This document shows, piece by piece, positions 44,017 through 51,456 of a stretch of 60,633 nt of DNA. The position numbers were made by a program, and so were the translations under genes. Within the stretch, counting starts at the first letter, position 1. The number at the start of each line of letters is the position of its first letter. The DNA is from Escherichia phage Dru_SM1, in the sequence record PP596835.1. The stretch is one strand, 5' to 3'. The notes beneath the pieces were generated by a model. That model worked only from the letters and a program-made list of their open reading frames with translations. It ran no database searches and was not told the DNA's origin.

Positions 44017-44481
44017 TTAAGAGTATGTACCTGTTTGAACAATGTGATTAATAGCATGTGCTCTGAAGATTTCCCTAAAATCTTCAAGTTCTATTGTAGC
44101 ACGAATTGGCTCCTTTTTAATATAATAATTGAACTCATTAATATCAAAGACGGAAGGGTTCATACATATAACAACTTTCCAACCCGCTCTAGGAATCTTA
44201 TACATTAAGACTGGGATCTTATTACATTCCTGTGCAGACTTAACAGTTTGCTTCCACCATGTGTTAACAGCAAGAGTTGCATGGTTTTTGATCTCTACAC
44301 AATATTGGCAAGTATTATCAATATCCGCACCACCTACAGCCGATTGATTTTGTCGCCTTTGTGCAATAGGTTTAGGTGGTAACGGTTTACCAATAAGCTT
44401 ATGCACTTCCGCATAAATATCGTTGAAAAAATCGCAAGCTTCCCTTTCAGCTCTCTGACCTTTTTGCCGTATGTTGACCAT
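44017..44481 (-). CDS. putative PD-(D/E)XK nuclease (possible resolvase)
   Basis: ORF 44017-44586; likely start ATG 44481; core GGADIDNTCQYCVEIK matches the D...(D/E)xK pattern. Confidence 0.4.
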   Translation of the reverse strand: MVNIRQKGQRAEREACDFFNDIYAEVHKLIGKPLPPKPIAQRRQNQSAVGGADIDNTCQYCVEIKNHATLAVNTWWKQTVKSAQECNKIPVLMYKIPRAGWKVVICMNPSVFDINEFNYYIKKEPIRATIELEDFREIFRAHAINHIVQTGTYS

Positions 44482-44959
44482 GATTTGCAAATTCCTTATG
44501 TAATTCCAATCTTTTAGTTCTAACCCAAGCTTTAGCAGCTTGCAAACCTTCAGGTGTAAGTTCAAAATATTTTGATACCAAAACACCTTTTACATGTAAG
44601 TTCGCATAATAGACTTGAATGCCATTATGTTTTGTAATAGTTACGCACTTAACACCAGTCTTTGAATCTTTACGAATAACCATATTATAATTGTTCTGTG
44701 AACGATCAGCTAGTCTAAGATTTTCTATTCTGTTATCATCTCGAACTCCGTTAATATGATCAATTATCTTGTCTTCAGGAATATCACCATTGAAGTATTG
44801 CCATATTAACCTGTGAGCGAAATAAAATCTCTTATCAATTTTACCTTGAATGTAACCGTCCTGACGTTTTGTACCAAATGGTCTTTTATTATAACCGTTT
44901 TTATTTCTTTGAAATAATTTGCCATCTATATAAATAAAGCGATCGTTTACATTGATCAT
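44447..44959 (-). CDS. HNH homing endonuclease
   Basis: HNH motif DHINGVRDDNRIENLRL; start likely ATG 44959 (MINVNDRF); 3' end overlaps the downstream nuclease gene. Confidence 0.7.
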   Translation of the reverse strand: MINVNDRFIYIDGKLFQRNKNGYNKRPFGTKRQDGYIQGKIDKRFYFAHRLIWQYFNGDIPEDKIIDHINGVRDDNRIENLRLADRSQNNYNMVIRKDSKTGVKCVTITKHNGIQVYYANLHVKGVLVSKYFELTPEGLQAAKAWVRTKRLELHKEFANHGQHTAKRSES

Positions 44960-45145
44960 GTTTACCTCCTTTATATGTATTTTAATATGAAGTAAAATCA
45001 ATCTCAATAAAAAAGCGCAACGTTTTCACGCTGCGCTTAGTTTAAATAAGGTACTTGACTATTCAGCTTCCCTTATTTCCGGTAAATTATACAGCCTCGC
45101 CAAAGGCTGGTGACGGTTTGGTACATCTGGCGCCGTCGCGTTAAA

Positions 45146-45172
45146 CATCGTTCACATCGTTCACATCGTTCA
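45146..45172. repeat. tandem repeat (CATCGTTCA)x3, with a fourth copy at ~45267
   Basis: three perfect head-to-tail 9-mers inside a 345-bp non-coding gap (45008-45352). Confidence 0.8.
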
Positions 45173-45352
45173 TTAAGTTGCGGGTTTACCCTGTCCGCTC
45201 CAGGAAGCCCAGCGAAAGTAGTTGCTGTAAGGAGGTACAGCTACCGCTTTCAAGGGCTTGAGTTAAGCATCGTTCACTAAGTTAATGTTGTTAAATTGTT
45301 AAACCTCGTTAACTGTGGTTATCTTAAAGGATGCAGTCTTGAATGGCAAGCT

Positions 45353-45670
45353 TCAATTTTGCGCGGTTCCCTTTTCCGCTTTTGGTGCTAAAGTACCATC
45401 ATTTAACATCAACTCAAAACCTGTTACTTGGTCGGTTGGAACAATAGGGTAATTCATAATAGCCATGTGGATACAATGCCCTCCGTCACATTCATCGATG
45501 TATTCATTACCCCAATAGTATAAATGCCCATCTCTTCGAATATCCATTGCTGTCGGGAAGTCTACAAGAATTCTTTTGATTTCTTTTCGTCCTTCTTTAT
45601 GCAGATTAGTTTCAATACGGATAAGCTCCGCATAAATTGCTTCACAGATAGTATTTACAATTCCCATCAC
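45353..45670 (-). CDS. hypothetical protein
   Basis: 105-aa ORF. Confidence 0.4.
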   Translation of the reverse strand: MMGIVNTICEAIYAELIRIETNLHKEGRKEIKRILVDFPTAMDIRRDGHLYYWGNEYIDECDGGHCIHMAIMNYPIVPTDQVTGFELMLNDGTLAPKAEKGTAQN

Positions 45671-45993
45671 CAGTCCGCCTTTTCTGTTTCGTTAATACAT
45701 TTTACAAGTTGATCAATACTTACATCAACGTAAATCTCACTCTGCTCAAGCTCTTTTATAAACTCATCCTCACAGCGGATTGGATTATGAAGCGATCCAA
45801 TTTCATACACTTGAACATGAGGAATAAGCGGTAAAAGATAAGTCCTTACCAGCTTGATCAGGACATGATGTTGATCTCTTTCCTGCAAATCAATATTATT
45901 GTCTTCACAAAAACCATCAATAATATCTCCGTCCCCGAAACCAAATTTACTTGCTAATCCATAAGCTCGTAATCTTAGAACGTTATCGGTCAT
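45667..45993 (-). CDS. hypothetical protein
   Basis: likely start ATG 45993 with GAGGG RBS. Confidence 0.4.
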   Translation of the reverse strand: MTDNVLRLRAYGLASKFGFGDGDIIDGFCEDNNIDLQERDQHHVLIKLVRTYLLPLIPHVQVYEIGSLHNPIRCEDEFIKELEQSEIYVDVSIDQLVKCINETEKADW

Positions 45994-46512: not shown

Positions 46513-46737
46513 ATGGTCATGCTGAATAAAGTATATAGCACAATGGGCGCGGATTATAAAGTTGTACGTCACCCTCGTACTGGCAAATTTGAAGCATATA
46601 TCCGTCCAATGGGTGAAGGTTGGATGTATTACGGTACTTATGACGACGCTGAGCAAGCTTATAAAGAGGCGGAAAGTGCAGCGGAAGCATCCGAAATTAT
46701 GGCAAGGTACGACGTCGATGATTATTACCTTAGCTAA
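46513..46737 (+). CDS. hypothetical small protein encoded opposite to the surrounding leftward genes
   Basis: 74-aa ORF with GGAGG RBS; followed by a hairpin terminator. Confidence 0.45.
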   Translation: MVMLNKVYSTMGADYKVVRHPRTGKFEAYIRPMGEGWMYYGTYDDAEQAYKEAESAAEASEIMARYDVDDYYLS

Positions 46738-46741
46738 CAAT

Positions 46742-49124
<2,383 letters not shown>

Positions 49125-50760: not shown

Positions 50761-51000
50761 TTAAAAGATAGTGCTAGTGGCAATTATAGTGGCATTACTG
50801 CGTATAGTGCGCCGTTGCTGGCTTTCAATGTCCTGCCACTATAACTGCACAAACGGCTATCACTACTATTTTGTATAAAGTATAAATTTTTGGGTTTTGC
50901 GTTACGTATAAATACCCCCTTTAAACTAAGAATTATAGTAGTAGTGGATAAACATAGTGAAATGCCACTATCACTACTTACTATAATTAATTTAATAAAA
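50761..51000. promoter_or_regulatory. iteron/operator-like repeat cluster (core TATAGTG / CACTAT, at least 8 copies in both orientations)
   Basis: 10-bp inverted repeat TATAGTGGCA (50785-50794) / TGCCACTATA (50833-50842); three direct ATAGTG copies at 17-19-bp spacing; TATCACTACT twice. Confidence 0.5.
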
Positions 51001-51290
51001 AATTGGGGTATCTGTACCAAAAACCTAAAACTTTCAGTCAACAGACTAAAAACGGATAGAAACTAAAAGTTAATAATTAATACCATAAATATATATAAAA
51101 TAAGGTTTTATTAGTAATTTATATAGTACCTATTGGTATTAGTTGACGTTCGCAAGGTCTGCTACAAAAAATCACAAAACTCACAAAAAGTGAAAGTTTG
51201 CAAGTCATGGCAAAATTGTTAATAGAATATAGTGTATGGATATACAGTATTATTCCAGATTCCGGAATAATTGGAATAATGGAATAAATT
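51001..51290. other. AT-rich non-coding region (candidate DNA unwinding element / divergent promoters)
   Basis: ~290 bp ORF-free and strongly AT-rich, with short direct repeats (TCACAAAA x2, GGAATAAT x3); between the two divergent gene blocks. Confidence 0.4.
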
Positions 51291-51456
51291 ATTGAACTAT
51301 TGTGATCGGAAGGTATATCAAGCTATAATCTGCGTTAAGGCAGAGAGGAGTTATTGCAGAGGTCCGGTAACACGGGCAGCCTCCACAGCAATAACAAGTC
51401 TACAGGAGGCTGTCTTACGTAGCGCGCGCAAAATTAAACTATTGTTTGGAGGGAAT

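Follow-up and report, generated by a model that had tools for sequence, protein, structure and literature searches.

A conserved non-coding element in the replication module of Seuratvirus phages as a candidate gene for a structured RNA

Introduction

Phages of the genus Seuratvirus, such as CAjan, Seurat and several isolates in the BASEL collection, are widely used in work on 7-deazaguanine DNA modification and on anti-phage defence. Escherichia phage Dru_SM1 (sequence record PP596835.1; 60,633 bases, analysed at its full length and called here the window) belongs to this genus (Queuovirinae; host E. coli), its closest records being those of SA126VB and VogelGryff. Among its replication and repair genes, the window holds a non-coding gap with tandem copies of a 9-mer, which raises a simple question: does this gap bind a regulator of the neighbouring genes, does it start DNA replication, or does it specify a product of its own? 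The original prediction, made from the sequence alone, considered the repeats as potential binding sites for a regulator, or as an internal promoter/operator for the downstream replication genes, and placed the gap at 45008-45352 (345 bp). As read from the sequence, the start codon of the HNH gene downstream is most likely the ATG at 44959, preceded by AAGGAGG, rather than the TTG at 45007, and the non-coding stretch is therefore larger, spanning 44960-45352 (393 bp).

We propose, with a probability of roughly 0.55, that this gap is an unannotated and self-contained gene for a discrete structured non-coding RNA (ncRNA) of ~310 nt, which would be transcribed from the minus strand, roughly from 45314 to 45006. 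The element (~320 bp) is either unannotated or mis-annotated as small hypothetical proteins in Seuratvirus records, and our search of the literature on Seuratvirus origins, ncRNAs and transcription or transcriptomes, whose results were partly swamped by papers on Cajanus cajan, retrieved nothing on it.

Transcription signals and conserved hairpins

A promoter-like site, P1, begins 4 nt past the stop codon of the gp60-like gene (Table 1), and it is also found in CAjan. In Salmonella phage STP-SP5 the corresponding site reads TTGACA-17-TAATAT, with both hexamers shifted towards the consensus and the spacing unchanged. Transcription from P1 would start at about 45314. At this same position the original prediction had listed TGTGGTTA as a further copy of the repeat; it is not one, since on the minus strand it reads TAACCACA, directly after the -10 hexamer of P1, and it is probably the transcription start region. 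The terminator-like hairpin that had been seen at ~45003-45032 is real, lies on the minus strand and has the features of an intrinsic terminator, and CAjan-type phages contain a terminator of different sequence, AGCCCAGG...CCUGGGCUUUUUU, at the equivalent position. Immediately after the terminator there is a second promoter-like site, the downstream promoter P2, which carries a promoter annotation in SA126VB and SA80RD and is present in both alleles of the 3' end of the element. No terminator separates the upstream gene from the element, so that read-through transcripts must include it.

RNAalifold analysis of 10 distinct sequences predicted five hairpins, P2 to P6, from which we curated a set of 48 pairs; across the 10 sequences, 99.2% of the cells are paired. 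Twelve of these 48 pairs are changed on both sides, compared with 3.0 +/- 1.4 in 500 shuffles, none of which reached 12, and with one or two in slid controls. Half of the doubly changed pairs belong to hairpin P2 (for instance, GCCC/GGGC to GUCU/AGAC and GAAAG/CUUUC to GCAAU/AUUGC), while its loop sequence, ACCUCCUUA (45236-45228), is invariant. We take this nonamer to be identical to the last 9 nt of the E. coli 16S rRNA, that is, to its 3'-terminal anti-Shine-Dalgarno sequence. Hairpin P6 contributes another five pairs changed on both sides between its two alleles, because the stem of most relatives (CAjan type) is GGAUAG / CUAUCC, with the loop words GAAG...GUCAA(A)GUA common to both alleles, and it also displays an extra A-U to G-C change in OddieOddie and SA80RD.

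Among the remaining hairpins, P3 shows one compensatory change in STP-SP5 (GUGG/CCAC) and a broken closing pair in OddieOddie, and in hairpin P5 two one-sided changes, one in STP-SP5 and another in KS_A3, preserve a G.U pair on the minus strand. Every column of hairpin P4 is invariant, also in STP-SP5, and this hairpin is thus untouched by the covariation count. The CGCCA in the loop of P4 is complementary to the UGGCG in the loop of P5, with all positions invariant, and these adjacent hairpins could possibly establish a loop-loop contact. Among the one-sided changes in all hairpins, ten keep pairing (G.U) only on the minus strand and three only on the plus strand, giving A.C on the minus one (our own count; binomial ~0.05), which modestly favours the minus strand and matches the orientation of the promoter and the terminator. 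As a whole, the predicted 310-nt transcript folds better than 100 out of 100 shuffled sequences (z = -2.9).

Table 1. Features of the non-coding element and of its neighbouring genes in the window, in the direction of the minus strand.
Feature	Position	Strand	Description	Basis or remark
Primase-helicase gene	49151-46788	-	NrS-1-like HBD + DUF3987	1.4 kb upstream of the element
gp60-like gene	45670-45353	-	105 amino acids, no Pfam match	Last small gene before the gap
Promoter-like site P1	45321..45349	-	Sigma-70-type; -35 TTGCCA (45349-45344), 17-nt spacer, -10 TAAGAT (45326-45321)	Promoter scan; consensus match
Array A	45261..45313	-	A/T-rich 5' segment; six T(T/G)AAC cores spaced 10, 8, 9, 9 and 10 nt	
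Hairpin P2	45205..45259	-	21 counted pairs over 24-25-nt arms; loop CCUCCU 45235-45230	RNAalifold; 99% of cells paired
Hairpin P3	45180..45198	-	Small; GCGG / CCGC, 11-nt loop	Weak support
Array B	45140..45173	-	Three tandem UGAACGAUG units (45172-45146) and UUUAAC (45145-45140); core spacing 9, 9 and 10 nt	Repeat of the original prediction
Hairpin P4	45112..45137	-	GACGG / CCGUC, 16-nt loop CGCCAGAUGUACCAAA	RNAalifold
Hairpin P5	45092..45109	-	CAGCCUU / GAGGCUG	
Hairpin P6	45044..45078	-	Window-type allele, AAAUAAGG / CCUUAUUU	Repeat search and RNAalifold
Intrinsic terminator	45006..45038	-	11-pair stem 45038-45013, GAAA loop, then UUUUUUAU T-run to ~45006	Scan
Promoter-like site P2 (downstream)	44979..45007	-	TTGAGA-17-TAAAAT, then Shine-Dalgarno AAGGAGG and ATG 44959 of the HNH gene	
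HNH_3 homing endonuclease gene	44959-44447	-		Directly downstream of the gap

Conservation, coding potential and distribution

The core of the element (45087-45352) is present in all 34 Seuratvirus records, with 93-97% identity except for STP-SP5 (74%), which is its sole divergent copy, as well as in 14 metagenome or assembly loci: three IMG/VR contigs, eight metagenome contigs and three Logan contigs. These 34 phage records also contain the gp60-like protein, with an identity of 57% in slur01 and 46% in STP-SP5. Indeed, the gp60-like gene occurs only in phages carrying the element and is highly mosaic (46-99% amino acid identity), compared with 74-99% identity for the adjacent non-coding DNA. 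In the Logan contigs L222 and L223, for example, the gp60 product is 53-63% identical, against ~99% for the element when compared with the common CAjan-type form. Constraint is therefore much stronger on the non-coding DNA than on the adjoining gene, and the element is the most constrained sequence of its neighbourhood. Despite their co-occurrence, it is unlikely that gp60 is a dedicated partner of the element, because it is only 46-63% identical where the element reaches 74-99%.

This conservation does not reflect coding, since the comparison of the window with STP-SP5 revealed no conserved open reading frame (ORF) on either strand of the element. Both a 56-amino-acid plus-strand ORF, which the records of some relatives seem to annotate as a hypothetical protein, and a minus-strand ORF of 21-29 amino acids that begins within the last 9-mer suffer frameshifts in STP-SP5 along stretches of identical nucleotides, and neither is preceded by a Shine-Dalgarno sequence.

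Searches for known RNA families were likewise negative. With Rfam 15, positions 44400-45900 gave no match in the gap at E <= 10, the sole match being a snoRNA model (E 2.8) inside the HNH gene; nothing reached the gathering score in the whole window, and nothing was found at E <= 1 in the loci of the relatives. ARAGORN predicted no tRNA or tmRNA, and the element had no match in 5,426 E. coli genomes. Neither nhmmer nor a covariance model of hairpins P2 and P3 retrieved matches in 80 IMG/VR loci with a homologous resolvase, nor in Nonagvirus and other related phages, among them 9g, EC151, Kpn2-P2, PSTCR7 and Vid5. Of two further DNA patterns searched in IMG/VR, one retrieved only the three contigs already known and the other, a 15-mer, mainly chance matches.

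Contigs from uncultivated relatives that encode a homologous primase and resolvase do not contain the element, and in some relatives the primase is directly followed by the resolvase with no comparable gap; the element is therefore a genus-specific addition. Providencia phage PSTCR7 (locus L127, 2357-2994) has a 640-bp gap upstream of its homologous resolvase, with a 13-mer, TAACTTAGTGAAC, in common with array A, two copies of GT(A/G)AACCAAGTGA and a layout of promoter, hairpins, terminator and promoter; PSTCR4 is its only relative, which is too few for a covariation analysis. In Pantoea phage Vid5 (L128, 2694-2781) there is a tRNA-Ser gene at the equivalent place upstream of the resolvase, and in phage 9g (L124, 2534-2809) the 458-bp gap at that place holds an unannotated ORF of 91 amino acids; this gap is not analogous to the element.

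Repeat arrays and a possible replication origin

Tandem Repeats Finder confirmed the three perfect tandem copies of CATCGTTCA at 45146-45172 (45145-45172, period 9, 3.1 copies, 100% match). The exact 9-mer (TGAACGATG on the minus strand) occurs at 45146-54, 45155-63, 45164-72 and 45268-76, the last one being the fourth copy that had been located at ~45267, and there is no fifth copy in the window. Allowing for one mismatch at most, we found 23 matches, versus 13.7 +/- 3.9 in shuffled sequences, with the 19 besides the exact four being scattered. On the minus strand, and there alone, ten T(T/G)AAC cores are clustered within 200 bp (45114-45313), while any other 200-bp window contains no more than four on either strand; the 9-mers therefore belong to a larger repeat system, within which a 16-mer, GTKAACGAKGYTTAAC, is also present in three copies. 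The isolated 9-mer copy, UGAACGAUG at 45276-45268, is part of array A and contains its fifth core, and array A also includes UAACGAGGU (45311-45303), complementary in 8 of 9 positions to the anti-Shine-Dalgarno loop.

The number of repeats does vary among isolates, a comparison that the original prediction had called for: every relative examined has two tandem 9-mer units, as read directly in 21 sequences and inferred for the others from match lengths of 256-257 versus 266, and the third copy in the window is therefore isolate-specific. Likewise, array A of STP-SP5 is short by exactly one unit (an 8-nt deletion). The AACGAUG core is retained in STP-SP5 in both tandem units and in the isolated copy, which indicates that the motif itself is selected. 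In metagenome contig L134 (ERZ1026901 NODE-154), two 9-mer units are separated by an insertion of ~100 nt (1139-1247), with no match in the phage database, whose predicted fold is an extended hairpin of its own. Gains of one unit or of an entire hairpin are easier to reconcile with a linker in a structured RNA than with a phased array for protein binding on DNA.

This organization also suggests that the element might be a DNA-level replication origin, of the iteron type or dependent on an R-loop, the main alternative to an RNA gene, which we consider possible although on the unlikely side. The T(T/G)AAC and AACGATG arrays would be iterons for a phage initiator, such as the NrS-1-like primase-helicase; array A, itself A/T-rich, would be the unwinding element, no separate one being present, with the promoter providing transcriptional activation or an R-loop primer, as in T4 oriF/oriG or the T7 primary origin; and the covarying hairpins would serve, on one of the strands, as signals for single-strand initiation. 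The ten cores on one strand are spaced by 8-10 bp, about one helical turn, and form two arrays, with copy numbers that shift by whole units (one more in the window, one less in STP-SP5). The element is also a unique genomic site that lies within the replication module, with the primase on one side and the resolvase, dUTPase, RNase H and ligase genes on the other, it is conserved far above its flanking genes, and it shows a large hairpin and an A/T-rich block right after the promoter; covariation with tolerance to G.T is equally compatible with hairpins in single-stranded DNA. GTGA, a recognition word of the NrS-1 primase-polymerase (PMC8718748), occurs inside the units of the window. This word and TTTGGTTA, both NrS-1 primase words present in the window, are not conserved in CAjan or STP-SP5, and we give them little weight.

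However, the repeat units of 5-9 bp are much shorter than typical iterons (17-22 bp), and the extremes of the cumulative GC-skew, at ~24 kb and ~51 kb, follow gene orientation instead of coinciding with the element, although skew is a poor guide in phages. An origin would also leave unexplained the terminator found in two unrelated alleles, the covariation of hairpin P6 beside it, the restart promoter and the tolerance of array B to the 100-nt insertion of L134, and relatives with a homologous primase and resolvase have no comparable gap. An origin is compatible with a transcript, and an RNA gene and an origin could be combined as an RNA-primed origin.

Weighing an RNA gene against other explanations

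Four features of stand-alone small RNA genes are found in the element: its own promoter (a consensus match), an intrinsic terminator, a covarying structure (in few lineages) and no conserved ORF. We favour an RNA gene because promoter and terminator follow each other in the order and on the strand that such a gene requires, because the hexamers of P1 and their spacing are retained, and changed towards the consensus, in the only 74% identical STP-SP5, and because a terminator is kept at one place in two alleles of unrelated sequence. To this we add that the hairpins covary without conserved coding, that the hairpin inserted between the 9-mers of L134 is the behaviour expected of a variable RNA linker, and that the absence of the element from related contigs with homologous primase and resolvase genes suits an accessory gene.

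Several observations weigh against this proposal. The promoter, the start site and the terminator are consensus matches only, and cores in the same orientation ~9-10 bp apart, an A/T-rich block right after the promoter, genomic uniqueness and a location among the replication genes are all classic traits of DNA-level origins. Fold stability is equal on both strands (z of -2.9 versus -2.8) and hence uninformative for the choice of strand, and three one-sided changes, in slur01, KS_A3 and OddieOddie, break minus-strand pairs. Nearly all the covariation comes from three lineages (STP-SP5, the L005, L136 and L224 group, and the alternative 3' allele), and hence from few independent events. Moreover, the E. 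coli phages are nearly identical in loops and linkers as well as in stems, beyond what most small RNAs show. Complementarity of at least 12 nt was not above chance elsewhere in the phage and the element had no match in E. coli, so that no target or partner was revealed.

The element could alternatively be a long structured 3' untranslated region (3' UTR) or processing region of the upstream operon, for instance an RNase III hairpin followed by a terminator that would stabilize the mRNA, with no promoter of its own and with 9-mers that vary by neutral slippage. RNase III cuts long irregular hairpins in the early mRNAs of T7, and hairpin P2 is long and irregular as well; read-through transcripts would contain the element, and the copy number of the 9-mer does vary. 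Nevertheless, we find a 3' UTR very unlikely, because the hexamers of P1 are conserved and even improved in STP-SP5, because two 9-mer units and the isolated copy are kept at an overall identity of 74% and are hence not neutral, and because 320 nt at ~95-99% identity beside a gene at 53-63% indicate far more constraint than a stabilizer needs.

Least probable of all is the operator initially suggested, in which the tandem 9-mers would be operator or activator sites for a DNA-binding regulator of an internal promoter of the downstream replication and repair genes, or in which looping between arrays A and B would control promoter P1. Oriented short motifs are indeed repeated near two promoter-like sites, array A begins at about +2 of P1, and the ~100-125 bp between the arrays make looping conceivable; however, the 9-mers overlap neither promoter, lying ~140-165 bp from the -35 of the downstream promoter P2 and at ~+140 to +170 from the start of P1, a strong terminator stands between them and promoter P2 and would stop the transcripts initiated at P1, the strand-specific covarying hairpins and the invariant loop would remain unexplained, and there is no candidate regulator whose occurrence follows that of the element, given that phages without it also have the small AP2-like gene. 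What stands from that suggestion is a functional non-coding DNA with a terminator and a conserved downstream promoter. The features that it did not include, namely P1, the covarying hairpins, the anti-Shine-Dalgarno loop and the conservation over ~320 bp, point to an RNA gene or an origin instead of a simple operator; proteins might in any case bind the repeats, as DNA or as RNA.

Other candidates were discarded: a type III antitoxin (ToxI-like) array has units of ~34-40 nt versus 9 nt here, and no toxin gene is adjacent, the neighbouring genes encoding an HNH_3 homing endonuclease and a PDDEXK resolvase; CsrA-type GGA sites are not conserved (GGG in the window, GGA in CAjan); and a pac or cos site is unlikely, because the terminase genes are located at the genome start in CAjan, ~45 kb away.

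Genomic context

The genes around the gap are on the minus strand, in the order primase-helicase, several small genes, the gp60-like gene, the gap, the HNH_3 homing endonuclease, the PDDEXK resolvase and then dUTPase, RNase H and ligase. The HNH gene is restricted to about 4 of 34 relatives, and in most Seuratvirus phages the gap adjoins the resolvase. Carriers of this gene share a diverged but isostructural 3' allele of the element (44960-45087, comprising hairpin P6, the terminator and the restart promoter) and a resolvase allele with only 62% identity to the form usually found, and SA80RD contains a different HNH gene behind the same 3' allele as the window. The arrangement resembles a hot spot of homing with co-conversion, whose target may be the ultra-conserved element.

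Just downstream of the primase, on the opposite strand, there is an ORF of 74 amino acids (46513-46737, plus strand) with a weak match to an AP2 domain (E 0.003, below the cut-off), and an opposite-strand small gene occupies the equivalent place in CAjan, 9g, Kpn2-P2, PSTCR7 and Vid5. A perfect (TTTA) x 8.8 microsatellite at 46759-46793 overlaps the region of the primase stop codon. Further away, an A/T-rich region at 50950-51330 contains short tandem repeats (51107-51128, 51164-51189 and 51264-51287) and coincides with the minimum of the cumulative GC-skew and with a switch of gene strand from minus to plus; it is a second candidate control or origin region.

Discussion

If the element is an RNA gene, the host sigma-70 RNA polymerase would initiate at P1, just past the upstream stop codon, and would first transcribe the A/U-rich segment with its six U(U/G)AAC units, then the long hairpin displaying ACCUCCUUA, the small hairpin P3, a linker with the UGAACGAUG units and hairpins P4 to P6, until halting at the intrinsic terminator; the downstream promoter P2 would restart transcription for the following genes. 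The tandem 9-mers would thus be single-stranded repeat units of the RNA, and the third copy in the window a gain by slippage in a linker that tolerates changes in length. The anti-Shine-Dalgarno loop may pair in trans with Shine-Dalgarno-type sequences, and the repeated U(U/G)AAC and AACGAUG units may offer a multivalent single-stranded platform to a protein or RNA partner, a specific mechanism that we put forward tentatively and regard as rather unlikely in this precise form. An even more speculative version, to which we concede little probability, is that the RNA is a phage-made mimic of the 3' end of the 16S rRNA, which would capture strong ribosome-binding sites or a factor that recognizes the 16S tail (for example, Era, YbeY, RsmA-type maturation factors or a defence nuclease), with the U(U/G)AAC arrays recruiting a multimeric partner. 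With such a mimic, a virulent phage would have a novel means of reprogramming or protecting translation.

An RNA would found a new family of phage ncRNAs with a perfect anti-Shine-Dalgarno loop and repeat arrays, and an origin would define the replication start of those phages of enterobacteria with an NrS-1-like primase-helicase; in either case, gene callers should place no ORFs in the element. Altogether, we regard the element as an apparent new RNA family, whose general kind (a phage ncRNA gene) is familiar and whose features are unusual, or failing that as the first origin candidate for this group of phages.

With respect to known origins, the element resembles those of lambda ori, RSF1010 oriV with its single-strand initiation (ssi) hairpins, T4 oriF/oriG and the T7 primary origin in its direct repeats spaced by about a helical turn, its A/T-rich block after a promoter, its large hairpin and its location among replication genes. 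It departs from them in its units of 5-9 bp, in being bounded by a conserved terminator and a restart promoter, in tolerating a 100-nt insertion and in having no skew signal. As in the CsrB/RsmZ sponges and the ToxI antitoxin RNAs, a short motif is repeated within one ncRNA with a copy number that varies among isolates; unlike in CsrB/RsmZ, GGA is not conserved, and unlike in ToxI, the units are of 9 nt instead of 34-40 nt and no toxin gene is adjacent.

The phage and prophage small RNA genes (DicF, IsrK, the anti-small RNA AgvB and the T4 band C/D RNAs) are, like the element, independent units from promoter to terminator, located between protein genes and without a conserved ORF. They also share with it a U-tailed terminal hairpin after an A/U-rich stretch and conserved single-stranded potential seeds. 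The element differs from them in showing no sequence or Rfam kinship, in being known from sequence alone, and in its greater length and structure (~310 nt and six hairpins), its two arrays of ~9-nt repeats and its loop with the 16S 3' end. Finally, a hairpin loop of the CCUCC type, complementary to ribosome-binding sites, brings to mind the UCCC loops of the staphylococcal RsaE and RNAIII, although here the anti-Shine-Dalgarno match extends over 9 exact nucleotides (ACCUCCUUA) and the host is E. coli.

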